64,000 nucleotides of DNA, taken from the NCBI GenBank assembly GCA_041659685.1, contig JBAZXV010000002.1, forward strand, positions 120,195-184,194, written 5' to 3'. Position numbers and translations under genes: made by a program. The DNA comes from Parcubacteria group bacterium. GTDB taxonomy: Bacteria > Patescibacteriota > Minisyncoccia > Moranbacterales > UBA11712. This document shows positions 6,298-58,737 of this stretch, piece by piece. Below the pieces are notes generated by a model. The model did no database searches and was not told where the DNA came from. It was given only the letters and a program-made list of their open reading frames with translations. Each line of letters begins with the position of its first letter. Position 1 is the first letter of the stretch.

Positions 6298-6941
6298 ATT
6301 CACCTGAAACGGGGGGCTACTATGCCGAGAGAGTTAGCATGTGAGCAGATAAGTTGTCAGAAAGACGGAAAGAATTGCGATCTTTCTGTCCGGATTTGCC
6401 AACCAATCTTAAAAAGCGGTTTCGCCGTTGATATTGATGAGCAGAACATTCAGATTATCTGCCCAGAGTGCAAAGTTAAGGGAGGAAAAAATCATAAAGG
6501 CTGCTGTACTAAGGGTCCGCCAGCGGGGTGACAGGATGGAGGGTAAAAAAAGTTGCGCCAAAAAAGCGGCTGTGGTTGAACCCGGTTCTTCAGAAGAGGA
6601 GCATTATGCAGAAGAGGGATATATCATTTCGGGTGGTCCTCCCGTGTGCGGAGTCTGTTTCGCTTCCTAATGGCGGCAATCATGAAGACGGGTGCATCTA
6701 TGGGCCGGGAGTAAAGTATTTTTAAGGAGGATCTGAAACTATTCATGAGAATAAAATCCAGGCCAGGGGTGGAGAACCGCCCCTGGCCGTAACTTTATCC
6801 CCCTGCACAGAAGATCGCGAACGTGAACTCGCCGGATAAGTGCTTCCTCTTTCTGTTTCGGGAAATTCCGCTCCCTCTCAAGAAACGGACGGATACCCCC
6901 GTGTGTAAATTCGGGGATCTTTATCAGCAGCCTTATCTTAG

Positions 6942-6970
6942 TTGACACATTATTCGGAGATTAATATAAT
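6942..6970 (+). promoter_or_regulatory. Consensus sigma70-like promoter (TTGACA-17-TATAAT)
   Basis: TTGACA at 6942-6947, a 17-nt spacer, then TATAAT at 6965-6970. It sits 130 nt upstream of the carbamoyltransferase gene. Confidence 0.5.
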
Positions 6971-7027
6971 GACAAAGATGACAAAAAAGATCGGAGTAAA
7001 AATTAGGTCAGGACACATTTAGCGGAT

Positions 7028-7054
7028 TCCCACCCGAAAGGTGGGAGTTTTTTT
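7028..7054 (+). terminator. Intrinsic terminator-like hairpin in the leader of the carbamoyltransferase gene (possible attenuator)
   Basis: TCCCACC-CGAAA-GGTGGGA stem-loop followed by GTTTTTTT. It lies between the 6942-6970 promoter and the 7102 start codon. Confidence 0.5.
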
Positions 7055-7101
7055 AAAAAATACACGAAAATAACAAATAATTAACGAAGAAAACGAAAAA
7101 T

Positions 7102-13289: not shown

Positions 13290-13431
13290 ATTTTTGCTGA
13301 ATAGTTACGGTTTAATGGTAATATTAAAACGGCTTACTTGCAAGGTTTCGTGAGTGGGGTAGAATATGATTATTGCCGCTTCGCGCTTTTTGAGACTTTA
13401 ACAATGCGCTGTAAGATAGAAGGAAAAAGTT

Positions 13432-14280
13432 ATGACACCAGGAAAGAGAATTATTAAGAAGACAATCATATCGGCTGTTTATGTCGTTATTTTTTCATTA
13501 TTAGCAGTCGGATTTTACAGCCTTTTCAGCGCCAATCCGACGTGCAGCGACGGAACAAAAAATCAAAACGAGGAAGGAGTTGATTGCGGCGGATCGTGTT
13601 CGGCCGTATGCGAGAAGATTCCCGATGTCGAAAATATTCAAGTCATCGAAAAAAATATTTTGCCGGCAGGGGACGGGCAATATGACGTCCTGGCCAGGAT
13701 AAGCAATCCGAATACGCAGTTTGGAATAGCCGATCTTGAGTATTCCTTCGATTTGCTGGACGGAGCCGGGAAAATAGTCGGCCAAAGCGAAGGAAAAAAT
13801 TTTATTCTTCCCAGCCAGGAAAAATATATTTTAGCTTTCAACCTAACCTCTTCCAGCGAGCCCAAAGACCTGAATTTTAAGATAAGGTCTTTCAGATGGA
13901 CCAAATTCTCCGAATATGAAGAACCGCTGGTGCAGGTTTATTCAAAGGAGTTTAACTTTGTCAGTGCGGGAAGCAATTTTGCCACCCTTAAGGCCAGGAT
14001 AAAAAATCTCAGTGATTACGATTTTAGGAATATCACTGTCAGCACTATAATAAGAAACGATCAGAATGTTCCGGTGGCGTTGAATCAAACAAACGTGAAC
14101 GACGTAAAAGTAAATGAAGAAAGGGAGATTGTGTTCAATTGGGGGAGAAGTTTTGAAATATCACAAGAGGCCCCCAAAATAGAAATAAACACAGATGTGG
14201 ATTTCTTCAGCGACGATAATTTTATGAAAAAATATGGCTCCCCGGACCAATATAGAAGTTATGGAGCGGATTCCGAATAA
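13432..14280 (+). CDS. Hypothetical membrane-anchored or secreted protein
   Basis: 282 aa. N-terminal TM helix (IISAVYVVIFSLLAVGFYSLF) followed by a Cys-containing segment (CSDG...CGGSCSAVC). No family recognised. Confidence 0.5.
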   Translation: MTPGKRIIKKTIISAVYVVIFSLLAVGFYSLFSANPTCSDGTKNQNEEGVDCGGSCSAVCEKIPDVENIQVIEKNILPAGDGQYDVLARISNPNTQFGIADLEYSFDLLDGAGKIVGQSEGKNFILPSQEKYILAFNLTSSSEPKDLNFKIRSFRWTKFSEYEEPLVQVYSKEFNFVSAGSNFATLKARIKNLSDYDFRNITVSTIIRNDQNVPVALNQTNVNDVKVNEEREIVFNWGRSFEISQEAPKIEINTDVDFFSDDNFMKKYGSPDQYRSYGADSE

Positions 14281-14285
14281 CCGGA

Positions 14286-15428
14286 TTGCCATATCGGGCG
14301 AATTTTTTTGTTTGCCGACTACAAATAATGATCAGAAGCTTTCTAAAACTAGATTGGATACTTATTACAGCCGTTGTCCTGCTTCTTATCCTGAGCCTCT
14401 CGGTTCTCTACACTATAAGTTATGGCGGAGAGTCAGTCGCTAAAGACCAGAGTCATTTTTTCAGGCAGTTGATATTCATGGGGATAGGGCTTGCGGTTTT
14501 TTTTGTTTTGTCTTTTTTTGATTACAGAATTGTTAAAGGCTATTCGGCTCCGCTTTTTGTTGCCGGCGCGCTTCTCCTGGTTGCGGTTCTTATAATCGGA
14601 AAAACGATTCGCGGCACGGTCGGGTGGATTGGATTTTCGGCCTTTCACATCCAGCCGGTCGAACCTTTCAAAATAATTCTCGTTATTGCGCTCGCAAAGT
14701 ATTTGTCGATAAATTCCAGAACAATAAAAGACTTCAGGCACGTGATAATTACATTTGTTCCCGTCAGCCTGGCGGTTTTTTTGGTTCTGAGCCAGCCAGA
14801 CTTGGGATCTGCTTTGGTTGTAATTTCAATCTGGCTGGGGATGCTGCTTGTCAGCGGAATCAAGAAGAGGCATCTCGCCGTCCTTCTTATTGCGGGGGCC
14901 GCAATTAGTGTAATCGCCTGGGGCTTTTTCCTGAAGGATTACCAGAGAGACAGAATAAATTCCCTCTTTAATCCCGCAGCCGATCCTTTGGGAGCGGGAT
15001 ATAATGTCATTCAATCGACAGTGGCGGTCGGTTCGGGGGGAATTTGGGGAAAAGGGCTGGGCCACGGATCTCAAAGCCAGCTTAATTTTCTTCCGGAAAA
15101 GCATACCGATTTTATTTTTGCCGTTACGGCGGAAGAACTCGGCCTCTTTGGAGCTTTTTTTGTTCTGGTTTTGCTTTCCATAGTCATTCTTCGTTTATTT
15201 AGAATTATGCAGAAAAGCCGCGGTAATTTTGGAAAGCTTATGGTCGCGGGGATAGCCGTCATGATTTTCGTCCAATCGGCGGTTAATATCGGCATGAATA
15301 TCGGGATTGCCCCGATTACGGGAATTCCTCTGCCGCTTCTCAGCTATGGAGGAAGTTCCCTGATATCGACACTAGCCGCTTTAGGGATCGCAGAAAGCGT
15401 CTCAAGGCGTTCGAAATCAAGTTTCTGA
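14286..15428 (+). CDS. SEDS-family peptidoglycan glycosyltransferase FtsW/RodA
   Basis: About 10 TM helices. Conserved SEDS motifs (QPDLGSALV, GHGSQSQLNFLPEKHTDFIFA, PITGIPLPLLSYGGSS). The true start may be the internal Met near 14331. Confidence 0.85.
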   Translation: MPYRANFFVCRLQIMIRSFLKLDWILITAVVLLLILSLSVLYTISYGGESVAKDQSHFFRQLIFMGIGLAVFFVLSFFDYRIVKGYSAPLFVAGALLLVAVLIIGKTIRGTVGWIGFSAFHIQPVEPFKIILVIALAKYLSINSRTIKDFRHVIITFVPVSLAVFLVLSQPDLGSALVVISIWLGMLLVSGIKKRHLAVLLIAGAAISVIAWGFFLKDYQRDRINSLFNPAADPLGAGYNVIQSTVAVGSGGIWGKGLGHGSQSQLNFLPEKHTDFIFAVTAEELGLFGAFFVLVLLSIVILRLFRIMQKSRGNFGKLMVAGIAVMIFVQSAVNIGMNIGIAPITGIPLPLLSYGGSSLISTLAALGIAESVSRRSKSSF

Positions 15429-18059: not shown

Positions 18060-19406
18060 ATGTTTGAATTCCTTATCTGGGTGAAACGGGTGAGTCATAT
18101 TAATAAGGTGAGCTCGAAATCCGTACCGGAAAAATTTCTGGCATTATTTTGTGTTGCCGCTCTTTCCTCTTTTTTCGCTCTTGCCTTTTTTACGCCTCCT
18201 GCCAGCGCTTCCGGTATTACCGTTCAAAAGGTCGTCGAGTTGTGCAATGCCGAAAGGACAAAAGAGGGGATGGGAAACCTTTCTGAAAATAAAAAATTGG
18301 ATAAATCGGCGGAGAAAAAGGCGGAGGATATGGCAGAGAAGGATTATTTCGCCCACACTTCTCCCGGAGGAGTGACGCCCTGGCATTGGATAGAGAGTGA
18401 AAATTATGATTATGCGTATGCCGGAGAGAATTTGGCAATGGACTTTACTTCGGCGGAAAAAATGAATCAGGCTTGGCTTGACAGCCCGACTCACCGGGCC
18501 AATATTTTGAATGAGAAATATAAGGACATTGGAGTTTCGGTGAAGGAAGCGGTGATTAGCGGTCATTCAACTGTCATTGTTGTGCAGCAATTCGGTTCAG
18601 GCGATAAAAGTGAAAAAGAAAAGATCAGCGCCGAAAAACCGTCAGGCGAAGCATCGGTCCGGACGGAGAAATCTTACCCGAGTCTCCCCCCGGGAACGAA
18701 GAATGACAAAAAAATCGGCCAGTCAATATCGAACCCGGTAATAACCAGTCCGGCCCAGAATGAAATCGTCTCTAATGATGATGCGGAAGTGATCGGGCGT
18801 TCGGCGCCGAATTCTGTTGTCAGTCTGTGGGAAGGCGAAAACAGAATCGGCCAGACAATTTCGGACGAAAAGGGATGGTTTCGGGAAAATATTTCCGCGC
18901 TCCCCGAGGGATCTCATGAGTTAAGGGCCGAAAGCGGAGAATATGCAGGGAAGTCAAAAGGAACAAAGAGCCCATTAAATGTCGTCGGTTTTTCCATCGA
19001 CAGATCCAGGCCAAAGGTGGATTACCGGCTTTATGCCAAAGAAGGAGAGTCCGGCAGCGGGGAATATTTTTTGCAGGTTACTTCTGACAAGCCGAATTGT
19101 TATTTCAGGATCGGCGGCCAATCAGGAATTGCTGAGAATTCCGGTGCAGCGTTTTTCTCAATTTCCGGGAGAAATCTTTCCTCGGTAGTCGAAGTCGAGG
19201 ATCAGGCAGGAAACAAAACCGCCAAACAAATTGTCCTGGCAAATTATTACCAGGGAGACGGGGGAAACAATATTATTAATGAGATAACCCAGATGTTTTC
19301 CCGAGGCAAGACTCTTGCGGACAAATCAGGAGGGGAGGCCGTGAAAGAAAATTCAGGATTTTTTTCGCAGCAGTTATTATCAATGCAAATGACAGAAAAG
19401 CGATAA
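18060..19406 (+). CDS. CAP/SCP/PR1-like domain secreted protein with C-terminal Ig-like region
   Basis: N-terminal hydrophobic segment. CAP-domain motifs (YFAHTSPGG...GENLAMDF...HRANILNEKYKDIGVSV). The start codon position is uncertain. Confidence 0.7.
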   Translation: MFEFLIWVKRVSHINKVSSKSVPEKFLALFCVAALSSFFALAFFTPPASASGITVQKVVELCNAERTKEGMGNLSENKKLDKSAEKKAEDMAEKDYFAHTSPGGVTPWHWIESENYDYAYAGENLAMDFTSAEKMNQAWLDSPTHRANILNEKYKDIGVSVKEAVISGHSTVIVVQQFGSGDKSEKEKISAEKPSGEASVRTEKSYPSLPPGTKNDKKIGQSISNPVITSPAQNEIVSNDDAEVIGRSAPNSVVSLWEGENRIGQTISDEKGWFRENISALPEGSHELRAESGEYAGKSKGTKSPLNVVGFSIDRSRPKVDYRLYAKEGESGSGEYFLQVTSDKPNCYFRIGGQSGIAENSGAAFFSISGRNLSSVVEVEDQAGNKTAKQIVLANYYQGDGGNNIINEITQMFSRGKTLADKSGGEAVKENSGFFSQQLLSMQMTEKR

Positions 19407-21281: not shown

Positions 21282-22289
21282 GTGTTTATAAAAAAAATAG
21301 GAATTGATTTAGGTACTGCAAACACCCTCGTTTTTCTTCCAGGGAAAGGGATTGTTGTTAATGAACCCTCAGTGGTGGCTATTTCGATGATCGACAACAA
21401 AGTGCTGGCGGTGGGCAACGAGGCCAAGGAAATGATAGGAAGAACGCCGGAGTCAATTACGGCTTCGAGGCCTCTAAAAGACGGTGTAATTGCGGATTAT
21501 CGGATTACGGAAGCCATGCTTCGCTACTTTATCAACAAAGTGAGCGGCGGATTCAGGCTGGTGAGGCCGGAGGTCATGGTTTCCATTCCGGCGGGTGTAA
21601 CTTCTACGGAAAGAAGAGCGGTAATAGATGCAACCGTAAAAGCCGGAGCGAGGACTGCCTATGTGGTCAAGGAGCCCGTTCTTGCCGCTATCGGAGCCGG
21701 AATTCCAATCAATAATGCGGCAGGAAATATGATAGTCGATATCGGAGGCGGGACGAGCGAAGTGGCGATAATATCTTTGGGCGGAGTGGTTGCGGCCACC
21801 AGCGCCAGAGTAGGGGGGGACAAAATAGACCAGGCGATCGCTGATTTCGTAAAAAAGAAACACGGCCTTGCAATCGGGGAAAGAACCGCCGAGGAAATAA
21901 AGATCGCCATCGGGAGTGCCATTCCTCAGATGAAAGATGAATATGTCGAAGTGCGCGGACGCGATCTTATTGCCGGACTTCCGAAGACTATCCGCGTTTC
22001 TTCGAATGAAATTACGGAAGCCATTCAGGATGAATTGCGCGAGATAATTAACGCGATTAAAAAAGTTCTTCAGGAAACTCCTCCGGAATTGGCGGCTGAC
22101 GTGATTGACAAAGGAATGATTCTTTCGGGCGGGGGAGCGCTTCTTAAGCATCTTGACCAGCTCATCACTAAAACGACGGGTGTCCCGTGCTATGTTGCGG
22201 ATGATCCCTTGTTCTGCGTGGTGAAGGGAACGGGAATCGCCCTGGAACAGCTGGATATGTATAAGCGGACTATAATGATGAGCAAGTAA
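21282..22289 (+). CDS. mreB: Rod shape-determining protein MreB (paralog 1, standalone)
   Basis: IGIDLGTANTLVF and DIGGGTSEVAIIS actin-fold phosphate motifs. 335 aa. Confidence 0.9.
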   Translation: MFIKKIGIDLGTANTLVFLPGKGIVVNEPSVVAISMIDNKVLAVGNEAKEMIGRTPESITASRPLKDGVIADYRITEAMLRYFINKVSGGFRLVRPEVMVSIPAGVTSTERRAVIDATVKAGARTAYVVKEPVLAAIGAGIPINNAAGNMIVDIGGGTSEVAIISLGGVVAATSARVGGDKIDQAIADFVKKKHGLAIGERTAEEIKIAIGSAIPQMKDEYVEVRGRDLIAGLPKTIRVSSNEITEAIQDELREIINAIKKVLQETPPELAADVIDKGMILSGGGALLKHLDQLITKTTGVPCYVADDPLFCVVKGTGIALEQLDMYKRTIMMSK

Positions 22290-29100: not shown

Positions 29101-29351
29101 TCCCCGCGTTGAGATTGTTAAGATATCTTAAAGAAGACGACAGGGAAATGTTCGGGCCACGACGCAGAAAAACATCCCGCCAAAAGGGGGAAGCGAGCGC
29201 TTTGACACTCCCTTTTTTATTAGCTAGTATATAGGGACGAGACGAAAAAACTAAAAACTAAAATCGAAAGTCCGAAGATTGCATCTGGGATGCGAGTTTT
29301 TTGCTTTTAAGTTGCAATTTTGCGTTAATATTTTCGATTTTTTATTTCATC

Positions 29352-30404
29352 ATGCTAAGTAATTTTTTCGGTAGATTTTCCAAGGATATAGGCATCGATC
29401 TGGGGACGGCCAATACTTTGGTATATGTGAGGGGAAGAGGAATCGTGATTAACGAACCTTCGGTGGTGGCGATCAACAAAAAGACCGGCCAGATTTTGGC
29501 TATCGGAAGCGAAGCCAAAAAAATGGTCGGGAAAACCCCGTCGCATATCGTTGCGACCCGCCCGCTTGTTGACGGCGTTATCAGCGATTTTGAAGTGACG
29601 GAGCAGATGCTTCGCTATTTCATCGATAAGGTTCACAGCGAAAGCTTTACTCTCCTTCCGAGGCCGCAAGTGGTAATCGGGATCCCTTCCGGAGTGACGG
29701 AGGTTGAAAAAAGAGCAGTAGTTGATGCGGCAGTGAGCGCCGGAGCGCGAAAAGCATATCTCGTCGACGAACCGATGGCGGCGGCAATCGGAGCCCGTCT
29801 TTCGGTCCAAGAAGCATCCGGAAATATGATCGTCGATATCGGAGGCGGTACAACGGAAATTGCGGTTATATCGCTCGGGGGCGTTGTTGTCTGCCGGAGC
29901 CTTCGGATTGCGGGGGACGAAATGAATGAGGACATTATCCGTTATTCGCGTGACCAGTTTAATCTGCTTCTTGGGGAAAAAACGGCCGAGGATATAAAAA
30001 TTGCAATTGGCAGCGCCTACGAGCTAGACGAGGTTCTTGAAATGCCCATGCGCGGCAGGGATCTTGTTACGGGCCTCCCAAAAGAAGTGATCGTAAATGA
30101 CACTCAGGTCAGAGAAGCCATTTTTCGTTCGATAAAGGTAATCGTCAACAGCATCAAGGCAACCATAGAAGAAACGCCGCCGGAGCTTATTTCCGACATT
30201 ATGCAGAGAGGGATTATTCTGGCCGGGGGAGGAAGTCTCATTCGGGGTCTTGACCGTCTTATTGCTGAACAGACGGATATGCCGGTCAGGGTCATGGATG
30301 ACCCTCTGACAGCCGTAGCCCGCGGAACCGGAATAATACTGGAGCATCTTGATGAGCTTAAAGGCGTCCTGGCGGAAACGCAATACGACAAAGTCAGATT
30401 TTGA
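29352..30404 (+). CDS. mreB: Rod shape-determining protein MreB (paralog 2, in mreBCD-pbp2 cluster)
   Basis: IGIDLGTANTLVYV and DIGGGTTEIAVIS motifs. The internal Met at 29352 is preferred over the 29301 start. Confidence 0.85.
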   Translation: MLSNFFGRFSKDIGIDLGTANTLVYVRGRGIVINEPSVVAINKKTGQILAIGSEAKKMVGKTPSHIVATRPLVDGVISDFEVTEQMLRYFIDKVHSESFTLLPRPQVVIGIPSGVTEVEKRAVVDAAVSAGARKAYLVDEPMAAAIGARLSVQEASGNMIVDIGGGTTEIAVISLGGVVVCRSLRIAGDEMNEDIIRYSRDQFNLLLGEKTAEDIKIAIGSAYELDEVLEMPMRGRDLVTGLPKEVIVNDTQVREAIFRSIKVIVNSIKATIEETPPELISDIMQRGIILAGGGSLIRGLDRLIAEQTDMPVRVMDDPLTAVARGTGIILEHLDELKGVLAETQYDKVRF

Positions 30405-47761: not shown

Positions 47762-50700
47762 TTGGTTTATTTTGATATTATTATGACAAGAACTCCTCTA
47801 GGCGACAAAAGAAGAGCACAACAAGCACCGAGAAACAGAATAAAAAAACCGAAGGGATCGCAACCTGCCCCATCCGGCGGGCCTGTTGGAGGCGGTTCAA
47901 TGGAATTTCCGCCTCCGCCGCAGGAAGCGGCTCCAGATCCGTCCGCTGAACCGGAAGTGAAATTACCCGAAGTTGGTGATGTCATTGAGTATAGAGTGGG
48001 CGGCAGTTCTAATCCCCAAATATTTCGCGACAAAGTTATAGGGTTACATAAAGATCCAATTACTCAGCAAATGGTTCCGATAATTGAAACTATTTCGGGC
48101 AATGAACGGCCTGTCATGGAATGGTATGATACAGGGGCGAAAATAGTGGGTAAAGCGGGTGAAGTTGAAACAGGATTAGTTGGTGGACCATGTTTTTCAG
48201 GAAGCCCGAAACCGACAGCAGGACCGAATGCTCCTCTGCCGCAGGAAGCGGCTCCAGATCCGTCCGCGGAACCGGAAGTAGATGAAAACTCCATGGATCC
48301 CGTAAAGTTTAAAGAGGTAATAACGAGATTGAGGAGTTCGGATCCGGCCGAGAGAAGCAAAGCCGCGCGAGAAGCCGGCGATCTTGGTTATGTCGAACCG
48401 TTGATAGAAGCGCTTCAGGACCCTGACAAAAAAGTTCGATTCTGGGCCGCTTATTCTTTGGGGGCAATAAAAGATCCTCGCGCCGTAGACCCCCTAATTA
48501 ATTCTCTGAAAGATGTTGACGAAGGCGTTCGCTATCGCGCAGTTGAAGCTTTGGGTGAAATTGCGGACTCAAAAGCAAAAGACGCTATCGAGGGAGCCTT
48601 AAAAGACCCCAGCGCAGCCGTCTGCCAGATTGCTGCGTGGTCCCTAAAAAAAATAGAACAGCAGGAAGCGCAAAAAAACAGCTCCGCCGCGGGGGAACCC
48701 GATGCTGTCTCGGATCCCAAGGGCGTGAGTGCGACCGGGGATGTCCCTGAAGTTGATGCGCCCTCCGGATATGTATATTCGCCGGGCGATGAGTTCTTAT
48801 CCCGGGAACAGCTTGCAGCGCAGCGGGAAGGGGACAAAAAGGCGCCGGAAATCAGAGAGGCAAGAAGAAAAGAAAAAGAAAAACAAAGAGCGAATGAAGA
48901 AGAGTTTGAGGGAAAAATGATCCAGTTTAAGGAAGATATGGCCGGGAAGGCGAGAAATTTTGCGCGAAAAGACCTGGAGAACACGAATAGATGGGAAAAA
49001 TTCAAAAAGATACTCGGAATCGGCAGAGAAGCGGAAAAAGATGAAGTGGTGAAAAATGCCGAAAAAGAATTTGATGACGCTCTTTGGGCGTATGTTGAGG
49101 CCGGGAAGGAAAAATTACCGGAAGGGAACAAAGAGCTGGCTCGGGTGTTTCTGAAATATGCTTTTCTGGTAGGAGAAATAGACCTTCGCTCAATCAAAGT
49201 GGATGAGGCGGCGGAAATGAAAAGAGAAAGCGGCGCCTGGTCGAATAAATATACCGAACATTATAAAAAAAGCAAAGATTGGTGGAAAAACTTGAGCTTC
49301 AAGAAAAAAATGGCCTATTCCGGCGCTGTTTTTGCGGTAGGCGCTACGGGAATTGGGGCCAGTTTCGCTTCGATTGGCGCCATGACTCTTTCGGCAAAGA
49401 TGGGAACCAGAATTCTTGGGGCCGGGGTCATGTATGACAGTTCGATGAAGTGGCAGGAGGCGCTTGACGTGGACGAAGCGGAATATATGGTCAATCAAAA
49501 AATAAACGAAATTTTGAAAGAGAGCGACTGGGAAGAAAGGATTAAAAAACTGACAAAAGAAGAAGTTCTTTCCGTTGCCAAAGAAAGAAGAAAAACTTTC
49601 GAATCCTACGATTCGCTGAATAAAAGAAGGGCTTATTTAATGGCTCTCGCCTTGCCGGTGGTCACAACGGCAGTCGACATATATAGATGGGGGTTTAAGA
49701 CGGCAGGCGCGGGGAGGCTGGTTGGCGAATCCGTAACAAAACCGTCCATTCAGGGAATTGATACTTCTCCCGGATCTCCATCTTCAGGAGGGGTTCTGAC
49801 GAATGCCGATACTTCGCCTAAGGCTGCGGGGGAGATCGCGCCGAGGATTCAAGGGCAAGAAATGAATAATATTGACGCTTCTTCTCAAAATTCTCTTGAA
49901 AATACGCCAAAAAGTGTTAGCGGAATTTTAACGGAAACCGACTCTTCCCCGAAGGCGGTTGAAATTGGTTCCGACACGGTTGGGAGAGGCGGCGGATTAT
50001 GGAGATCAACAGAAAGGTTTATCCGGGCCAATCCTGAAGAGTTTAAACTGGACAGAAAAAGTGCAAATTTTGTCGGCGAAGTGCGAAAACTCACCAGAGA
50101 ACTGCTCGAAAATCATGCCTCCGAACATGGAATGAGCTACGAAGAACTTAACGAAATTGCCAGCACAAAAGTCCAGAGCGAGGATATCCTGAAATTTATC
50201 AAGGACCCTTCAACGGGAGAAATCCATGTTGAATATTCAAGGGATGATATTTTCGGCCAGGGAGGCATTGCAAAGCCGGATGTGCCGCTGGATGAGGGTG
50301 CGGACAAAGAAAAATATATTCAGGAAAAGGCGGCAAAAATTAATGAAGAATATTTAAAATATAAGGGTGGCGGAATTTCAGCAGAACAACATGCCGCACC
50401 CGGCGTTTCGGGCGCTTCGGCCGAAGATTTGGGCCGGAGCAGGCCCGCTCCGAAAGCTCCGGAATGGCTCCAAAAGCATAATGATAATATTGCCATGAAG
50501 AAAGCGGTGGAGGGGCAATTCAGCGATGTGCAGAAAGGAACCGAAGCAAGACTTCGAGAAATTCAAGGGCTTCACCATGAGAACATAACCGCCGAAGCCG
50601 TTATCAGGCAGGGAATTGCGGTTCGCGGACTTCTTAAAAATATCATTCATGAATCAGGTATTGGAAATAATGTTTCTCTTTGGGATGAACCGGCGGAAAA

Positions 50701-50941
50701 ATGGTATGGGGACTTTATAAACAGCGAGGAGTTAATTCCTCAGGATGTATCCCAAAATATGCCAAGCGGTAATTCAATCGATAATATAAATAATAATCGC
50801 AGGATATTAAAGAAAATTTTTTCCCAGCTTCCCAAACCGCAGCCCGGACAGAAGACCTGGCCCGCTCTTCTTGACGCACTGAGAAAAGATCCAGGCAACC
50901 TCGTGAGAATTGAAGAGGCTTTGAATGCGAGATATAAATAG
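47762..50941 (+). CDS. Large (1059 aa) HEAT/PBS-lyase-repeat protein with Pro/Ala-rich linkers and a glycine-zipper hydrophobic segment
   Basis: A tandem duplicated PPPQEAAPDPSAEPEV linker. Four or more HEAT_2-like repeats (DPAERSKAAREAGDLGYVEPLIEALQDPDKKVRFWAAYSLGAIKDPRAVDPLINSLKDVDEGVRYRAVEALGEI...). A charged coiled region. A central GAxxGxG segment (FAVGATGIGASFASIGAMTLSAKMG). Confidence 0.7.
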   Translation: MVYFDIIMTRTPLGDKRRAQQAPRNRIKKPKGSQPAPSGGPVGGGSMEFPPPPQEAAPDPSAEPEVKLPEVGDVIEYRVGGSSNPQIFRDKVIGLHKDPITQQMVPIIETISGNERPVMEWYDTGAKIVGKAGEVETGLVGGPCFSGSPKPTAGPNAPLPQEAAPDPSAEPEVDENSMDPVKFKEVITRLRSSDPAERSKAAREAGDLGYVEPLIEALQDPDKKVRFWAAYSLGAIKDPRAVDPLINSLKDVDEGVRYRAVEALGEIADSKAKDAIEGALKDPSAAVCQIAAWSLKKIEQQEAQKNSSAAGEPDAVSDPKGVSATGDVPEVDAPSGYVYSPGDEFLSREQLAAQREGDKKAPEIREARRKEKEKQRANEEEFEGKMIQFKEDMAGKARNFARKDLENTNRWEKFKKILGIGREAEKDEVVKNAEKEFDDALWAYVEAGKEKLPEGNKELARVFLKYAFLVGEIDLRSIKVDEAAEMKRESGAWSNKYTEHYKKSKDWWKNLSFKKKMAYSGAVFAVGATGIGASFASIGAMTLSAKMGTRILGAGVMYDSSMKWQEALDVDEAEYMVNQKINEILKESDWEERIKKLTKEEVLSVAKERRKTFESYDSLNKRRAYLMALALPVVTTAVDIYRWGFKTAGAGRLVGESVTKPSIQGIDTSPGSPSSGGVLTNADTSPKAAGEIAPRIQGQEMNNIDASSQNSLENTPKSVSGILTETDSSPKAVEIGSDTVGRGGGLWRSTERFIRANPEEFKLDRKSANFVGEVRKLTRELLENHASEHGMSYEELNEIASTKVQSEDILKFIKDPSTGEIHVEYSRDDIFGQGGIAKPDVPLDEGADKEKYIQEKAAKINEEYLKYKGGGISAEQHAAPGVSGASAEDLGRSRPAPKAPEWLQKHNDNIAMKKAVEGQFSDVQKGTEARLREIQGLHHENITAEAVIRQGIAVRGLLKNIIHESGIGNNVSLWDEPAEKWYGDFINSEELIPQDVSQNMPSGNSIDNINNNRRILKKIFSQLPKPQPGQKTWPALLDALRKDPGNLVRIEEALNARYK

Positions 50942-50967
50942 ACAATAATAAATTGTTATATAAATAA

Positions 50968-51294
50968 ATGCAAAATAATTCAATTCTCAAAAAAAATTTG
51001 ATTGACGAGCTGGGATTAGGCGCCTTGCCCCAAGAAAAGCAGGATGAACTGATAGCTAAAATGGGCGAAGTGATAACGAAAAAGATATATCTTGAGACAA
51101 TGGAAAATTTGAGTGAAACCGACAAAGAGGAGCTGGTGAAAATGCTCGATGCCGAAGCTGAATCGGAAAAAATAGAAGAATTTCTCAAAGGAAAAATTGA
51201 AAATTACGAAGAGATTGTGAAAAAAATCATTGATGATTTTAAGGAGGAAATAAAAGAAGCGGCGAATAAATTTGATGATAAATATAAAGAGTAA
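50968..51294 (+). CDS. Small acidic hypothetical protein (108 aa)
   Basis: ORF directly downstream of the HEAT protein on the same strand. Glu/Lys-rich helical composition. No family recognised. Confidence 0.4.
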   Translation: MQNNSILKKNLIDELGLGALPQEKQDELIAKMGEVITKKIYLETMENLSETDKEELVKMLDAEAESEKIEEFLKGKIENYEEIVKKIIDDFKEEIKEAANKFDDKYKE

Positions 51295-51298
51295 TTCT

Positions 51299-51793
51299 AT
51301 GCCTACAAATTATCTTGAGCCAATTGAGAAGGAGGATGTTGATCTGAAGGGAAAATTTACGGGACAAAGAGAAAGCGCGGTTCCAAGCCCCGAAAAAAAT
51401 CTTATAAAAGAAGAAAAGATAGCGACGATTGAAACGCCGGGGAAAAAAGAAATTGAACCAGCCGGCCCCGAAAAAGAAACGGGAGCGGAAGTCCAGGAAG
51501 AAAAAATTTCCGAGAAAATAGAAACTGCCAGAAAAACGATCAGCACCCATAAGCCGGGTACTGCGGCGGCAATTACGGATGACGCGAAAACGATTGCCGG
51601 AATCACCGAATATGAAAAAAAAGTGGAAAAGCTTGTCGAGCTTGCCCTCCAAAAGGGTCCAGAACATGCGATCAAAGTCGCTCAGCACATGGATTCAAAT
51701 GACAACTATACTCTTGATGAACTTCATGATCGGATGATAGAAGACGATTTGAGAAAACAGCTTGTTCAAAAAGGCATGCTGAAAGATTTATAG
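51299..51793 (+). CDS. Hypothetical protein (about 165 aa), Glu/Lys/Pro-rich N-terminal half
   Basis: The start at 51299 (MPTNYLEP) is preferred over the overlapping 51272 start. The C-terminal 60 aa look globular. Confidence 0.4.
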   Translation: MPTNYLEPIEKEDVDLKGKFTGQRESAVPSPEKNLIKEEKIATIETPGKKEIEPAGPEKETGAEVQEEKISEKIETARKTISTHKPGTAAAITDDAKTIAGITEYEKKVEKLVELALQKGPEHAIKVAQHMDSNDNYTLDELHDRMIEDDLRKQLVQKGMLKDL

Positions 51794-51833
51794 AATTTTT
51801 CAAAAAAATTTGGTTTAAGTAACAAAAACAAAA

Positions 51834-54374
51834 ATGGATGCGTTGAATCTTAATTTAATTCTGTATCCGCTGGCCGGCCTTCTGGCGCTTGCCAGCCTGA
51901 TTTCCGGTTTTTGGATGGTATTTCGAAGTTTCTCTATTTTTCGCGGGGAGATAACCCGGTCCTTAAACATGGACATGGATGTCGTAAAGGTGAGCCATTC
52001 GCTCAAGACCCAATCGCAATCATCACAACAGCAACAGCAGCAGCCAAAACCGGAAAAGGAAATAATTTCCGTTATGGAACACCTCTTTGCCAGTCTTGGA
52101 AATATAAAAGAAAAAGCGGGATTTTGGCACAGGATAATATACGGCGACGCAGTGATCGCGCTTGAAATTGCCAATCCGTCTGAAAACGACGAAATTTGTT
52201 TTTATATCGGGGCGCCAAAAAAATTCATCTCAATCGTGGAGCGCCAAGTCCACAGTTTTTTCCCGAAAGCGTCCATCGAAAGAGTGAAGGATTACAATAT
52301 ATTTTACCCGGGCAGCAGAACGGCTGCTTCATATCTTATGCTTCGCGACAAGGACTGCCTTCCGGTTCGCACGTACCAAACGCTCGAATCCGATCCTCTT
52401 AACAATATCACCAACGTCCTTGGAAAATTCGACGAGAAAAAAGAAGGAGCCGCCATTCAAGTTCTCATTAAGCCGGCTCGCGGAGACTGGAGAAGCAAGG
52501 GAAGGGAGATTGCCCATAAGATGCAGCAGGGCAGGCGCCTTGCTGACGTAAAGAGAGACACACCCGTCCGGCTTTTCCTTCGGGGCTTTTTTAGTATTAT
52601 TTTTAAAAAAGACGATGACCAAAAAAAAGATATATTCAAGCCGAACAAAGAGCAGGTTCAACTGACGCCTGAAGAACAGGAGATAGTGAAAAAAATCGAG
52701 GGAAAATCTAATAAACCTGGTTTTGGCGTCAACATCAGGCTGGTGGCTTCCGCTTTGAACCAGGAAAGGGCCGAGTCGATCTTGGCGGAGCTTGAGAACG
52801 CTTTCATCCAGTATGAAAATCCAAGCATCAACGGATTCAAGGTAGTGAGGGACAGCAAGAAAAATAGCAACAACACCGCCTTTAATTTCATATTTCGGAT
52901 TTTCAAAAATGAGCAGAGCTTCGTTCTTTCTTCGGAGGAAATATCGAGTATCTTTCATTTCCCTCTTTTTTCGACTGAAACGCCGAAGATTGCCTGGCTC
53001 AAGGCCAGAACTGCCGCGCCGCCTTCAAATATTTCCAAGGAGGGGATAAAACTCGGTTTTAACGATTATCGGGGAGTGGACACGGTTATCCATCATGCGG
53101 ATGATGACCGCCGCCGCCATTTCTATATTATCGGTCAGACCGGAACCGGAAAATCAACCATGATGGAAGAAATGGTGAAGCAGGACATAATAAACGGAAA
53201 AGGAGTTTGCGTTATTGATCCCCATGGCGAGTTCGTGGAGCATGTGATCGAATGCGTTCCGAAAGAAAGGGCGGAGGACGTCATCTATTTCGACCCGGGC
53301 GATATGGAAAGGCCGTTCGGGCTCAACATGCTCGAATACGATACATCGAAGCCGGAACAGAAGACATTTGTCATTAATGAAATGATAAATATTTTTGACA
53401 AGCTGTATGACCTTAAGCAAACCGGTGGTCCGATGTTCGAGCAATATATGCGAAACGCGGCCCTTCTTGTCATGGAACATCCCGAATCAGGATCGACTCT
53501 CATGGAAATTCCGCGGGTGCTCGCTGACGAAGAATTCCGGCACCTCAAGCTTTCTCACTGCACCAATCCGATTGTCAAAAATTTTTGGGAAAAGGAAGCC
53601 GAAAAAGCGGGCGGAGAAGCGGCTCTTGCCAATATGGTTCCTTATATCACATCGAAACTCACTCAGTTCATATCAAATGATATGATGCGGCCGATTATCG
53701 CCCAGGAAAAAACGACCGTGAATTTCCGTCGGGCCATGGATGAACAGCAAATAGTCCTCGTCAATCTTTCCAAAGGAAAAATAGGGGAAATAAATGCCAA
53801 TCTTTTGGGTATGATAATCGTTGGGAAAATTTTAATTTCGGCTCTTTCGCGGGTGGATATGCCGGAAGAGGAACGCAAGGACTTTTATCTCTATATCGAC
53901 GAATTTCAGAATTTTACAACTGATTCAATCGCCCAAATTCTCTCCGAGGCGCGAAAATACCGTCTGGCCCTCGTCATAGCTCACCAGTTCATTGCCCAGC
54001 TCAAGGAAGAAATATCAAAAGCTGTCTTCGGAAACGTGGGATCGATTTGCTCATTCCGTGTTGGCGCGGAAGACGCAGAGTTTCTGCAAAAACAATTCGA
54101 GCCGGTTTTTGACGCAAACGATCTCATGAACGTAGATAACAGAAATTGTTTCATGAAACTTCTCATCGCGAGCCAGGTGGCTTCGCCCTTCAATATGAAG
54201 ACATATCCGCCGACGAAGGGCAGCGCAAAGATTGCCGAAGCGATAAAAGAGCTTTCTAAATTGAAATATGGAAGAAATCGTGATATAGTAAATGAAGAGA
54301 TAATGAAAAAATCTAATTATGTTACTCCGCCGCCTTCTGCCGACGCGTTCGATATGGGGGAAAAACCATTATAA
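51834..54374 (+). CDS. Membrane-anchored P-loop ATPase of the VirB4/TraC/HerA/FtsK superfamily
   Basis: N-terminal TM (LILYPLAGLLALASLISGFWMVF). Walker A at about aa 435 (HFYIIGQTGTGKSTMM). A DPHGE motif. Walker B (FYLYIDEFQNF). 846 aa. The Walker A position near residue 440 resembles VirB4-type conjugative ATPases. Confidence 0.75.
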   Translation: MDALNLNLILYPLAGLLALASLISGFWMVFRSFSIFRGEITRSLNMDMDVVKVSHSLKTQSQSSQQQQQQPKPEKEIISVMEHLFASLGNIKEKAGFWHRIIYGDAVIALEIANPSENDEICFYIGAPKKFISIVERQVHSFFPKASIERVKDYNIFYPGSRTAASYLMLRDKDCLPVRTYQTLESDPLNNITNVLGKFDEKKEGAAIQVLIKPARGDWRSKGREIAHKMQQGRRLADVKRDTPVRLFLRGFFSIIFKKDDDQKKDIFKPNKEQVQLTPEEQEIVKKIEGKSNKPGFGVNIRLVASALNQERAESILAELENAFIQYENPSINGFKVVRDSKKNSNNTAFNFIFRIFKNEQSFVLSSEEISSIFHFPLFSTETPKIAWLKARTAAPPSNISKEGIKLGFNDYRGVDTVIHHADDDRRRHFYIIGQTGTGKSTMMEEMVKQDIINGKGVCVIDPHGEFVEHVIECVPKERAEDVIYFDPGDMERPFGLNMLEYDTSKPEQKTFVINEMINIFDKLYDLKQTGGPMFEQYMRNAALLVMEHPESGSTLMEIPRVLADEEFRHLKLSHCTNPIVKNFWEKEAEKAGGEAALANMVPYITSKLTQFISNDMMRPIIAQEKTTVNFRRAMDEQQIVLVNLSKGKIGEINANLLGMIIVGKILISALSRVDMPEEERKDFYLYIDEFQNFTTDSIAQILSEARKYRLALVIAHQFIAQLKEEISKAVFGNVGSICSFRVGAEDAEFLQKQFEPVFDANDLMNVDNRNCFMKLLIASQVASPFNMKTYPPTKGSAKIAEAIKELSKLKYGRNRDIVNEEIMKKSNYVTPPPSADAFDMGEKPL

Positions 54375-54453
54375 ATGAAAAATGCAAAAATAAAAGTGAA
54401 AAATGACAATTTAAAATGCAAAATTATTTTAATGTTCAATTTATTATAATATT

Positions 54454-54624
54454 ATGACAGACGATCAATTTCAAGAGCAATCCGAAGAACAGGGGACACT
54501 CGACCCCCATTGCGTTTCCTGCGGCATGCCCATGAAAAAAGAAGAAGAATACGGAACAAATGCGGATGGAAGTAAAAATAATGAATATTGCTGCCATTGC
54601 CTTATTGATGGCGAGAAAAAATAA
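54454..54624 (+). CDS. Small zinc-ribbon protein (56 aa)
   Basis: MTDDQFQEQSEEQGTLDPHCVSCGMPMKKEEEYGTNADGSKNNEYCCHCLIDGEKK, with CxxC...CxxC pairs. It lies directly downstream of the ATPase. Confidence 0.4.
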   Translation: MTDDQFQEQSEEQGTLDPHCVSCGMPMKKEEEYGTNADGSKNNEYCCHCLIDGEKK

Positions 54625-54650
54625 AAGTAAACTAGAAAGCGAGGTGAAAT

Positions 54651-54815
54651 ATGACAGACGACATGACAACAACTCCTCCGGCAGACGACACGCAAGCCGA
54701 CGAAGGGATGCAAACTCAGCCAATGACTCCTGCAGGAGAAACTCCTGCAGAAGAAGCTCCAGTTGAGGAAACTCCGGCTGAAGAAGGCGCGGAAGCGACT
54801 CCTCCGACTGAATAG
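54651..54815 (+). CDS. Small acidic Pro/Thr/Glu-rich ORF (54 aa)
   Basis: MTDDMTTTPPADDTQADEGMQTQPMTPAGETPAEEAPVEETPAEEGAEATPPTE. It shares the MTDD start with the preceding ORF. The sequence is low-complexity and the call is low-confidence. Confidence 0.25.
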   Translation: MTDDMTTTPPADDTQADEGMQTQPMTPAGETPAEEAPVEETPAEEGAEATPPTE

Positions 54816-54958
54816 TAAGTAGCCACGCTATTTATCCGCCTTTGCAGAAGGCCACGAGTGTTTTCTAAGCTAAAATACACGAAAATCTTCTGCTTCGGCG
54901 GATTCCGCACTGATGAATAAAATTATTTGTCGGGCTTGCGGAACTTCATAATCAAAAA

Positions 54959-54986
54959 ACCGGCCATTGATTTGGCTGGTTTTTTG
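54959..54986. terminator. Bidirectional intrinsic terminator
   Basis: AAAAAACCGGCCA-TTGATT-TGGCTGGTTTTTTG. It sits between the convergent plus-strand block and the minus-strand gene at 55003. Confidence 0.55.
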
Positions 54987-56758: not shown

Positions 56759-57625
56759 TTAAATAAGCAAGTTCATGCTCTCGAGCAAGGATTTTTGGTT
56801 CACGTTTTGGATTTCGATGCCCGGACGGCCGTTGATTTCGATGAGGACGACGCGATCATTTTTGTCGATGATCAAATCCACCCCGGAAATAAGAAGTTGG
56901 GAAAGTTTAGAGGCCTCTATAGAGGCCTCTATCAATTTGCCCCAATGCGGGATGCGAAAGTTTTCCGGAATGTCAAAATCCGAAAGTTTGAATGCGCGTT
57001 CCTCTTTTTTGGAAAAAAGATGCGTCACTTTGCCGGTTTTGACGTCGATGCCGACGCCGATGGCGCCGACGGTGAGGTTGGCCCGTCCGCGGGTGGCTTT
57101 GGTCGAATGTCTCAGCATGGCCATGACGGGAACGAAATTTACGCAAAAAATCCGGATGTCGGGCAGGCCGGCGGAGTGTTTGAACATAATTTTTGGCGAC
57201 GGATAGATTCTTTCCTCAACGATTGCGACATCTCTTTCCGAATGGCCGGAATATTCACCATCCAGGATGCGGCGAATGTGTTTTCGAATTTGTTTTTCGG
57301 AATACTTTTCGCCCGAAGGATCAAAAAACTTCCCGTCTTTCTTCTCAAGGACCATGATGCCGCTTCCGCCGAAGCCCCGGGACGGCTTGATCACGAATTC
57401 TTCCGGGAAAAGCCGGATTTTTTCAAGATCCGCGATGTTTTCAATTTCGAAAAAAGTTTTCGGCGAATATATTCCATGCTGAGAAAAGAGTTTTTTGGCC
57501 GCCGCTTTATTCTTGGCGAGGTCGAGTGATTCCCAGAAATTATATTCCCGAATCAAGAAATTGCGAAAATTCATGCCGAGCGGCTTTTTCTTTTCAGAAA
57601 AATATTTTCTGGACAAATTAATCAT
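56759..57625 (-). CDS. RimK-like ATP-grasp ligase (alpha-L-glutamate-ligase-like)
   Basis: 288 aa. FVIKPSRGFGGSGIMV (ATP-grasp B-loop) and a C-terminal LIEINGRPGIEIQN (Mg/ATP-binding E..N motif). Confidence 0.7.
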   Translation of the reverse strand: MINLSRKYFSEKKKPLGMNFRNFLIREYNFWESLDLAKNKAAAKKLFSQHGIYSPKTFFEIENIADLEKIRLFPEEFVIKPSRGFGGSGIMVLEKKDGKFFDPSGEKYSEKQIRKHIRRILDGEYSGHSERDVAIVEERIYPSPKIMFKHSAGLPDIRIFCVNFVPVMAMLRHSTKATRGRANLTVGAIGVGIDVKTGKVTHLFSKKEERAFKLSDFDIPENFRIPHWGKLIEASIEASKLSQLLISGVDLIIDKNDRVVLIEINGRPGIEIQNVNQKSLLESMNLLI

Positions 57626-58737
57626 TTTTTTCGAAGCATCTTAAAGCGAAAAAATTCGGTGAAACGGAGGCCGTTATAATGTCCGGCCGCGATCGCGAGC
57701 AGGATGGAGGCGGCGAAAATGAGCCAGATGGCGCCATACGATTGCGTAATAAGATAGCTGCCGATGAAAGTGAGGACAACGGCCAAGGCCATGGTTTGCA
57801 CCGTGAGCAAGATTGCGTCGCCAATTCGGTGTTCGCCGACAGTTTTCGAAAATCTTTCGATGATGTGAGTCGTGATGATGAGCGGAAAAAAGACCGTGGT
57901 GACGGCGACTTGAAAACCGAGCGGCAGAAAAGAAAAACCGACCAGTGACAAAACGACAGCCGACATAATGAGCGACATTTCGGCGACATGCGGCAGTTTC
58001 AATTTTTCAAAAAAAATAATTTTGAAGCCGGTGCCGATGGAAATGAGAAAAATATAAATAAAAATTCCCTGAACGATGTTTGGCGACATCAAAATGAGCG
58101 AAAGGGCGATGACGACGGGAGCAAAAACTCCAAAAGTTCTGAGACCCCCGATGAGCTGGAAAAGAACCACTAGAGCGCCGAGAATCGGGATGATGAGAAT
58201 GTCTTTGCTGACGGCGCGGTTGGCCGAGCGAGCCAAAATTATGGCTTTTGAGAATCGCTGATTGACCGGAGCTTTCGGTTCATTCAAAAATTGTCGGGCC
58301 GGATCAATGGTGAATCCGAGAAGATCTTGGCGTCCGATGATCATGTCGGTGTTGAGTTGCGACCGATCGGCGACGGACAGAACTGAACTGATAGTTTTGT
58401 CTCCGAGGATAAATTCTGCATTGACAGTTTCTCGAACCTGAACTCCCGAGGCACTGATAACCCGGCGTTTCAATTTGTTGCGCTGAAGTCCCAGTCGGTC
58501 GGCGAGCGAAGAGTCGATGGCGGAAAAATCCGCGCCTGTGTCGGTTTTGGCGACGATATTGGCCGGACCCTGAGGCGAGAGCAGAATGACATTTTCCTGA
58601 GATCCGATCAGGGAGCTCGTTTCGTTTCTTGATTCAAAAAAATCGATGAGAACCCCGGCCAAGATTGCGAGGGCGAGGGCGGTCGAAAAAATGGCGATTC
58701 TGCGGCGTTTTGAAATTTTTGGGTTGGTGAATTGCAT
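57622..58737 (-). CDS. Retropepsin-like aspartyl protease fused to a C-terminal 7-TM domain
   Basis: N-terminal TM. Aspartyl protease motifs AKTDTGADFSAID ... MIIGRQDLLGFTID. About 7 predicted TM helices in the C-terminal 200 aa. It overlaps the ATP-grasp gene by 4 nt. Confidence 0.7.
   Translation of the reverse strand: MQFTNPKISKRRRIAIFSTALALAILAGVLIDFFESRNETSSLIGSQENVILLSPQGPANIVAKTDTGADFSAIDSSLADRLGLQRNKLKRRVISASGVQVRETVNAEFILGDKTISSVLSVADRSQLNTDMIIGRQDLLGFTIDPARQFLNEPKAPVNQRFSKAIILARSANRAVSKDILIIPILGALVVLFQLIGGLRTFGVFAPVVIALSLILMSPNIVQGIFIYIFLISIGTGFKIIFFEKLKLPHVAEMSLIMSAVVLSLVGFSFLPLGFQVAVTTVFFPLIITTHIIERFSKTVGEHRIGDAILLTVQTMALAVVLTFIGSYLITQSYGAIWLIFAASILLAIAAGHYNGLRFTEFFRFKMLRKK

Follow-up and report, generated by a model that had tools for sequence, protein, structure and literature searches.

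We analysed a stretch of 64,000 nucleotides from a Parcubacteria group bacterium (contig JBAZXV010000002.1; hereafter the window) and found that its plus strand carries, at 47783-54374, a functional unit of four genes, A-B-C-D, which is a vertically inherited chromosomal operon of Moranbacteria (Patescibacteria). The last gene, D, encodes an ATPase whose motor is a recognisable relative of the coupling proteins (T4CPs) of type IV secretion systems (T4SSs); its N-terminal domain and its three partners are uncharacterised. On balance, and with some reserve, we favour the explanation that D represents a Patescibacteria-wide family of coupling-protein-like ATPases, and we propose that the operon encodes a T4SS coupling complex. 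Judged from sequence, its function is most likely that of a membrane-associated translocation or coupling motor, possibly for a T4SS encoded elsewhere. An earlier note, made from the DNA alone, had suggested that the region could be an uncharacterised module for membrane translocation or defence, unlike a canonical T4SS and unlike the defence systems described so far; our results bear out the translocation part and the distinction from both.

The ATPase encoded by gene D

Gene D (51834-54374, plus strand) encodes an 846-aa protein that consists of a transmembrane (TM) helix, a DUF8128 domain and a nucleotide-binding domain of the VirD4/TraD type with an all-alpha insertion. The TM helix (residues ~6-30; 51849-51923) appears as a hydropathy peak over residues 1-36, and the alpha/beta DUF8128 domain (residues ~45-400; 51966-53033) corresponds to PF26449, which is precomputed on all listed homologues. 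The Walker A motif GQTGTGKS (residues 434-441; 53133-53156) and the Walker B motif LYIDEFQN (residues 686-693; 53889-53912) contain G434 and K440, and D689 and E690, respectively, all of which are invariant in 82 family members, as are further residues. A DPHGE motif lies at residues 462-466 and DEFQNF at 689-694; these motifs, a Walker A near residue 435 and a membrane anchor had already been pointed out in the earlier note. Since the catalytic residues are invariant, D is predicted to be active as an ATPase, and very likely is.

Sequence profiles consistently connected the motor domain of D with T4CPs. In Pfam, D matched TrwB_AAD_bind (E 2.9e-12, 46.6 versus 20.5 bits), DUF87 (E 4.5e-11, 43.7 versus 23.2 bits) and, weakly, TraG-D_C. 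Over 56 diverse family members, TrwB_AAD_bind matched all 56, TraG-D_C 54 and T4SS-DNA_transf 31. NCBIfam TraD models also matched all 56, at scores far below their cutoffs, and D itself stayed under every curated TraD/VirD4 threshold (46 bits against a cutoff of 366 for the best model, SXT_TraD, and 38.6 against 250 for CD1115). A search of PDB sequences with D returned TrwB and DotL only. Upon alignment with hhalign, D matched TrwB at 97.4% (E 1.2e-11) over 268 columns, residues 419-725, which include the all-alpha insertion, and matched TrsK, a Gram-positive T4CP, at 94.6%. Single VirB4 sequences gave 8.9% (TrwK), 11.7% (PrgJ) and 85% (TrsE, over the Walker B stretch only). The VirB4 family profile did match D in the C-terminal domain (94.8%, E 5.4e-8), more weakly than TrwB. 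As to HerA helicases, matches were confined to the DUF87/P-loop region with no sign of a HAS-barrel N-terminal domain, the HerA equivalog model scored 20.9 bits against a cutoff of 970, and no HerA nuclease partner was found in the window. By these profiles, the ATPase domain of D is of the T4CP type (the VirD4/TraD/TrwB branch of the FtsK/HerA superfamily) and not a VirB4 or HerA.

The AlphaFold2 model of D, built on 82 diverse homologues (a run with 20 close homologues gave a pLDDT of 59 and was too poor), has a pLDDT of 89.8 and a pTM of 0.81, with most of the DUF8128 region above 90. It contains a helix at residues 6-44, the alpha/beta domain at ~45-400, a RecA-like domain and, between Walker A and Walker B, a helical insertion at ~509-613. 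In a Foldseek comparison with the PDB, the top matches were full-length TrwK/VirB4 structures (7o42 and 8rtd; E 1.8e-15 over ~930 columns, with TM-scores of 0.25-0.32 and an rmsd of ~16 Å), followed by HerA, Cag-beta, TrwB and DotL; target-normalised TM-scores were 0.60-0.67 for TrwB (ATPase part) and 0.53-0.57 for Cag-beta and DotL. The best whole-chain fold match of D is full-length VirB4, although the sequence profile favours a T4CP. No such kinship was seen in the sequence of the N-terminal domain, which gave a probability of 0.1% against a 43-sequence alignment of VirB4 N-terminal domains and no profile similarity to TrsD; the VirB4 N-terminal family PF03135 (CagE_TrbE_VirB) matched neither D nor any member in the family-wide Pfam scan. 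The NCBIfam CedD model aligned with residues 264-472, reaching into the N-terminal domain, and matched 49 of the 56 family members (33 bits against a cutoff of 600). The N-terminal domain may be VirB4/CedD-like in fold.

The earlier note had likened the ATPase to VirB4/TraC or to HerA/FtsK and had named HHpred and Pfam as the way to check. The FtsK/HerA superfamily, the whole-chain VirB4 fold and the match to DUF87 agree with this, but an assignment to VirB4 or HerA is not supported: the closest profile is that of TrwB and the top Pfam family is TrwB_AAD_bind. D has the nucleotide-binding domain with Walker A and B motifs and the inserted all-alpha domain of a T4CP. It does not have two TM helices directly before the nucleotide-binding domain, does not reach the curated thresholds and has no relaxase or T4SS genes around it, and for these three reasons we call it T4CP-like, not a T4CP. 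The family is a distinct clade in which the N-terminal domain is novel and the motor domain that follows it is of the T4CP type.

Some of these observations also suit a different explanation, in which a ring of D would work as a stand-alone nucleic-acid translocase without any T4SS, pumping DNA or RNA in or out, as archaeal CedD/CedB do in DNA import and Streptomyces TraB and FtsK do with dsDNA. Organisms unable to make nucleotides could use it to scavenge them or to exchange DNA. The layout of D is the same as that of CedD, which is needed for DNA import in Sulfolobales (PMC11868833), the CedD model matches most of the family and in the window protein reaches the N-terminal domain, and the best whole-chain folds are those of full-length VirB4. 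D also stands alone in housekeeping contexts in several lineages, overlaps a downstream DNA recombination gene in one relative (see below), and has homologues that are more widely spread than VirB4. However, the CedD score is far under its cutoff, Saccharibacteria rely on ComEC and type IV pili for their competence (PMC12857230), and no DNA-binding or nuclease partner is consistently linked to D. We regard this explanation, the main rival of the coupling complex, as rather unlikely, though it deserves to be kept in mind. A role of D as a replacement of FtsK looks unlikely; FtsK is reportedly discussed in transcriptome studies of the Saccharibacterium TM7x.

Partner genes C, B and A

The partners of D were traced in two sets of loci. 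The Moranbacteria set comprised 84 loci from GTDB species representatives, in which A, B and C were detected by locally iterated hidden Markov models (HMMs). The diverse set came from a scan of metagenome contigs that started from distant D sequences and yielded 77 loci, with 37-58% identity to the seed P0135.

Gene C (51299-51793, plus strand) encodes a 164-aa acidic protein (pI 5.1). In it, a low-complexity spacer separates an LEPIExxDLDL motif at the N-terminus from a conserved C-terminal helical domain of ~60 aa, the signature of which, taken from the alignment, is KLVxLAxxKGxxHAVKVAxHxxDNYxLDxxHD. C had no match in Pfam, NCBIfam or the PDB, and a profile search of proteins returned only Moranbacteria/Parcubacteria proteins, of which one (P0311, an NCBI protein from a metagenome-assembled genome, MAG) is identical to C. 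It is present in 72 of the 84 Moranbacteria loci, at a median distance of 61 bp from D. In the diverse set, C adjoins D in 28 loci, and in 30 D itself bears a C-like domain, joined to its N-terminus; the fused forms, of ~920 aa, make up a large sister clade. Fusion to C and the TM helix of D are mutually exclusive: the helix is absent from 29 of the 29 fused proteins that could be scored and present in 116 of 122 unfused ones. This pattern of linkage and fusion marks C as a dedicated partner of D.

Gene B (50968-51294, plus strand) encodes a 108-aa acidic helical protein (pI 4.6). It belongs to DUF5663 (PF18908), which it matches over all of the profile (positions 1-84 of 84; E 9.9e-9, 36.1 bits with a gathering threshold of 23.7); it had no match in the PDB sequence search. 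B is found between A and C in 55-57 of the 84 Moranbacteria loci, and the copies of relatives are annotated as DUF5663. B and C are the two small acidic (Glu/Lys-rich) proteins of the earlier note.

Gene A (47783-50941, plus strand) encodes a 1052-aa membrane protein in which variable N- and C-terminal regions surround a conserved core. The ATG at 47783 is the most plausible start; a TTG at 47762 would give 1059 aa. The core (residues ~370-634; 48890-49684) was defined by an HMM iterated from residues 341-680 and consists, in order, of charged helices, a Gly/Ala-rich hydrophobic segment (~513-558), a charged helix and the start of a second hydrophobic helix (~617-640). The core HMM matched the large upstream protein in 58-60 of the 84 Moranbacteria loci, with E-values from 1e-12 to 1e-74. 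In ~60 of the 84, an A orthologue of 440-2000 aa lies 0.8-1.5 kb upstream of D. No Pfam family was found on seven A orthologues (875-1784 aa), apart from one weak DnaJ match that falls on a separate upstream gene. The C-terminal 370 residues of A are recognisable in seven close loci only.

The N-terminal region of A carries HEAT/PBS-lyase-type repeats (within residues ~170-296, with ~179-296 at 48317-48670; HEAT_2 E 1.2e-24, 86.8 bits; HEAT_PBS E 1.5e-14), and the PDB sequence matches of A are alphaRep proteins, all within residues 170-312 and nearly all within 170-295. The repeats are genuine and short (~120 of 1052 residues, ~12%), so that tandem HEAT repeats do not form the bulk of the protein. 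The module had no tblastn match in the 84 related loci, and no HEAT family of Pfam was found in the relatives with 92% and 87% identity, in which the corresponding region is two genes. The name of a giant HEAT-repeat protein of 1059 aa, given to A in the earlier note, was correct in its repeats and misleading as a description, because the repeats are a minor part that is absent from every orthologue examined. The Pro/Ala-rich linkers and the glycine-zipper-like segment of the same note are also there: the linker PQEAAPDPSAEPEV occurs twice as an exact 14-residue direct repeat, at residues 46-59 and 153-166 (47918-47959 and 48239-48280), and the hydrophobic segment is the Gly/Ala-rich one of the core. 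The two copies of PQEAAPDPSAEPEV bracket a small beta-rich segment, and the repeat may mark a recent internal duplication or domain insertion. By the comparison of orthologues, the HEAT module is a lineage-specific addition, and what is conserved in A is only the charged-helix and Gly/Ala-rich hydrophobic core between hypervariable ends.

The recurrent linkage of the genes and the fusion of C to D point to a functional complex, most strongly for C and D and with good support for A and B. One locus, L063, has besides the upstream A-B-C a further A-like gene (629 aa) directly downstream of D, along with another B-like gene (12641-14911); the A-B pair appears to be duplicated there.

The two genes divergently upstream of the operon, in the window and in most Moranbacteria loci, encode PMT_2 glycosyltransferases, and this raises the question of envelope or surface-protein biogenesis, in which D would act together with PMT_2 and a GtrA-like flippase and supply the energy to insert, export or turn over A or other glycoproteins of the surface. 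In many lineages, GtrA is the gene after D. Beyond its hydrophobic core, A has a region that opens with a Ser/Thr/Pro-rich stretch, diverges very fast and is kept in the seven close loci only, and we read this divergence as that expected of a surface-exposed domain. However, the PMT genes run in the opposite direction to the operon and are absent from distant D loci, the adjacency of GtrA and dnaX may be plain synteny in streamlined genomes, and the topology of A is unproven. We know of no T4CP-family ATPase that acts in glycoprotein export. A role of this kind seems improbable.

Distribution and chromosomal setting

An HMMER search with D of 1.84 billion cluster representatives (clusters at 50% identity) gave 22,257 matches at E<1e-3 and 5,796 at E<1e-30. 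Both DUF8128 and the ATPase domain were present in 137 of the 150 best representatives, at identities down to 33-36%. The nearest homologues of D and C are from Candidatus Moranbacteria/Moraniibacteriota and from MAGs labelled "Parcubacteria group". Inside Moranbacteria the identity of D is 55-92%, which is very high for such fast-evolving genomes.

The usual order in the 84 Moranbacteria loci is two PMT genes on the minus strand, followed on the plus strand by a large protein, a protein of ~100 aa, a protein of ~145 aa and D. A relative with 52% identity keeps the complete arrangement of PMT, PMT, A, B, C and D. Co-conservation, the lack of which the earlier note had named as a refutation, is thereby confirmed for A-B-C-D, the order of which recurs in most of the 84 loci. 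In several distant lineages (L112, L130, L154, L160 and L167) the order is D-A-B, with an A-like protein and then a B-like protein of ~100 aa downstream of D, and in L154, L160 and L167 the A-like protein is matched by the core HMM. In distant lineages, as these sequence matches indicate, the gene order has been shuffled and the linkage retained. The neighbourhoods of D include ftsQ, an ftsA-like gene, rpoBC and mur genes; uvrABC; a ribosomal-protein operon with NAD kinase; and elsewhere GtrA and dnaX downstream, with adk, a UMP-kinase-like gene and map upstream. No T4SS or relaxase gene was found in the related loci that have precomputed Pfam annotation.

Several peculiarities were seen among the relatives of D. 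Nine paralogous proteins of ~820-960 aa (P0232, P0238, P0240, P0253, P0257, P0260, P0261, P0264 and P0269) share a D-type ATPase domain with 44-50% identity and have an N-terminal region of ~400 aa that the DUF8128 HMM does not recognise; they may be the second T4CP homologue per genome that is implied by the literature count of ~2 per genome. Some family members (L086:8001-14021, P0170, P0173, P0180, P0184, P0186, P0190 and P0191) reach 1,400-2,000 aa through a C-terminal extension of ~1,000-1,200 residues that holds no Pfam domain. In a Minisyncoccia relative, L085, a gene for RmuC (DNA recombination; 10456-11460) overlaps the end of D by 17 bp, a single case in which the overlap suggests translational coupling. 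The ~2.4 kb upstream of the C-D pair in the same locus (5150-7615) contain almost no open reading frames (ORFs) of at least 40 aa. Loci clearly of the Moranbacteria type were also found in many GTDB/ENA records with titles such as "uncultured Bdellovibrionales", "Candidatus Bathyarchaeia archaeon", "Micavibrio sp." and "Fimivivens sp." (L007, L010, L012-L014 and others), which are probably mislabelled or contaminated MAGs.

In the window, the operon is part of a block of six co-directional ORFs, A to F (47762-54815, plus strand), with gaps of 26, 4, 40, 79 and 26 bp from A to F. The two PMT_2 genes upstream and, downstream, a 156-aa ORF and a DUF763 gene are all on the minus strand. The block ends at a bidirectional terminator-like hairpin (54953-54986) with a 14-pair stem, six G-C pairs and flanking A- and T-runs. 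All six ORFs and the hairpin of the earlier note were recovered, including both short ORFs that start with MTDD, one of them with paired CxxC motifs; the membership of these two in the unit did not hold up. ORF E (54454-54624, plus strand) encodes a 56-aa zinc ribbon (CVSC...CCHC; Zn_ribbon_2 E 4.6e-13), and its homologues directly follow D only in L006, L007 and L010 and, as a 55-aa ORF, in the relative with 87% identity, about four close relatives in all. ORF F (54651-54815, plus strand), preceded by a Shine-Dalgarno-like GAGGTG, would encode a 54-aa acidic Pro/Thr-rich protein; no homologue was found in any fetched locus, and the 87% relative has no room for it. Going by these homologue searches, E is a clade-specific neighbour and F a putative orphan, and neither belongs to the conserved unit.

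When 46 ORFs of the window were compared with Pfam, the majority belonged to housekeeping families (nucleotide metabolism, GatB, ThrRS, LysRS, SerRS, FtsW, two MreB, PBP2, a MurA-like protein, a Mur ligase, FtsQ and UvrB). None of the 46 matched a family of T4SS proteins, relaxases or pilins, in agreement with the earlier note, which had seen no other T4SS or conjugation components. No integrase was found among the window ORFs either, tRNA and Rfam scans of the window were empty, and the GC content of the block (0.42-0.48) is inside the range of the window. Together these observations identify the window as chromosome, not a mobile element. They also bear on whether the block could be the decayed remnant of an integrated conjugative element, since D is T4CP-like and such genes normally lie beside relaxases on mobile elements (PMC12102498). 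However, searches of the window gave neither an integrase, a relaxase or a VirB4 nor any repeats or tRNA target, the GC content is ordinary, the synteny extends across ~84 species, and the catalytic residues are invariant under strong purifying selection. This origin is hardly credible.

The same core-genome context counts against a HerA- or MADS-type module for defence against phages. The earlier note had raised defence in general, along with a comparison with PADLOC and DefenseFinder. Weak partial matches to PADLOC models were indeed obtained: mad8 (E 3.6e-14), several HerA models (E 1e-8 to 1e-2) and, for A, HEAT-ARM_XIII. However, the HerA matches are short and lie round Walker A, mad8 covers only the ATPase domain (residues 411-755) and HEAT-ARM_XIII only the HEAT repeats of A, so that no match is full-length. 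No NurA, Sir2, DUF4297, methylase or nuclease partner and no other PADLOC component was found in the locus. Defence systems are patchy and island-borne, whereas D is a core gene, 55-92% identical throughout the order, that keeps its synteny with genes of cell division and replication. Since D is vertically inherited among housekeeping genes, we consider a role in defence very improbable.

Elsewhere in the window, an ATP-grasp gene (ATPgrasp_ST) lies beside a gene for a 7TM_transglut protein with an aspartyl-protease domain (56759-58737, minus strand), downstream of the DUF763 gene; the pair resembles a peptide-modification or ligation module and is kept in the 87% relative. Two full-length MreB paralogues (21282-22289 and 29301-30404) occur in the same 64 kb as FtsW/RodA, PBP2, site-2 protease and MurA-like genes. 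A 448-aa protein (18060-19406) combines a CAP (cysteine-rich secretory protein) domain with a bacterial Ig-like domain, and a CAP-domain protein is also found near D in the distant locus L088.

Proposed mechanism and likeness to known systems

From the homologues TrwB, VirD4 and DotL we infer that D probably assembles into a hexameric ring, powered by ATP, on the cytoplasmic side of the membrane. Its anchor there would be the TM helix at its N-terminus or, in lineages in which this helix is replaced, the C domain. C would be an obligatory adaptor subunit that docks D to a platform or presents substrates to it, and in the fused forms it would substitute for the TM anchor. A would span the membrane through its Gly/Ala-rich core and, together with the small helical B, provide the membrane platform or a channel-proximal partner; its variable ends, including the HEAT module (presumably cytoplasmic), would serve as lineage-specific interaction surfaces. 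The complex would recruit a macromolecular substrate, either protein or nucleic acid, and feed it across or to the membrane. In the most economical case, A-B-C-D would be the "missing" coupling complex of a Patescibacteria T4SS encoded elsewhere. The essential T4SS of Saccharibacteria (Southlakia) has no recognisable coupling protein or relaxase in its cluster (PMC10633639), and the T4SS of Patescibacteria is usually near dnaA (PMC12102498).

Several points weigh against a T4SS coupling complex. No T4SS gene lies in the 64 kb, and the link to a T4SS is for that reason drawn from homology. The N-terminal architecture of D, with one or no TM helix and an extra domain of 350 aa, is unlike that of canonical T4CPs; searches of Pfam, NCBIfam and the PDB linked A, B and C to no T4SS component and no characterised protein; and the topology of A is judged from hydropathy only. 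A recent survey found T4CP homologues in 96% of Patescibacteria genomes versus 80% for VirB4 (5,713 VirD4-type homologues in 2,918 of 3,035 genomes, only 148 of them near virB4), and in Southlakia epibionticum the t4cp homologue is not essential, in contrast to the T4SS (PMC12102498). Since the homologue is not essential, the survey leaves open that these proteins were exapted. Tentatively, and with clearly less confidence than in the coupling complex as such, we suggest a broader history in which C-D, with A and B, would be an ancient Patescibacteria-wide translocation machine that arose from a coupling protein by the addition of a new N-terminal domain and new subunits, and that would act either as the coupling or energising complex of the essential T4SS, which has no relaxase, or as an independent motor that acquires or delivers host-derived nucleic acids or proteins at the interface of epibiont and host.

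Orphan T4CP homologues in Patescibacteria, and their possible exaptation, have thus already been published (2025 survey). The DUF8128-T4CP architecture, partner C and its fusion to D, and the linkage with DUF5663 and an A-type membrane protein are not described in the searchable literature: our search found no papers on DUF8128 or DUF5663, and the survey does not mention A, B or C as partners (PMC12102498). The exchange of macromolecules with the host is a question of interest for Patescibacteria, which account for a large part of bacterial diversity and have an epibiotic way of life; in the one genetically tractable species the T4SS is essential, yet its cluster holds no coupling protein. The orphan ATPase now gains a concrete anatomy, namely a TM helix, DUF8128, a T4CP-type ATPase, partner C, DUF5663 and a membrane protein with hypervariable ends, and the locus offers a testable handle on what is, among the uncharacterised machines of this phylum, one of the best conserved.

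In the Dot/Icm system of Legionella, the T4CP DotL works with DotM and DotN and with the small acidic adaptors IcmS, IcmW and LvgA. The A-B-C-D unit resembles this coupling complex by analogy only, in combining a T4CP-like ATPase with a membrane partner and small acidic proteins; none of A, B and C is recognisably homologous to DotM, DotN, IcmS, IcmW or LvgA. VirB4/TrwK/TraC proteins share with D an N-terminal domain of ~400 aa before a C-terminal ATPase, and the C-terminal domains are homologous, but the N-terminal domains lack profile similarity and D has no VirB3, VirB6 or VirB8 neighbours. CedD, the DNA-import ATPase of Sulfolobales, resembles D in its TM helix, N-terminal domain and ATPase of the FtsK/HerA superfamily, and is also chromosomal and not linked to a relaxase (PMC11868833). 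Unlike D, CedD is archaeal, its ATPase is HerA/VirB4-like, and its partners CedA/A1/A2/B/E are without counterparts at the D locus. T4CPs (VirD4/TraG/TraD; for example TrwB of R388, TrsK of pGO1, PcfC of pCF10, DotL and Cag-beta) usually have two TM helices, whereas D has one, or none when C is fused, carries the extra DUF8128 of ~350 aa between TM helix and ATPase, has the novel partners A, B and C, and is a chromosomal core gene away from relaxase and T4SS genes. Nevertheless, it is with T4CPs that D has in common the RecA-like domain with an inserted all-alpha domain, the Walker A and B motifs, conserved Q, R and K residues and N-terminal membrane tethering, and it is T4CPs that give its best sequence-profile matches and good fold matches at the level of domains.

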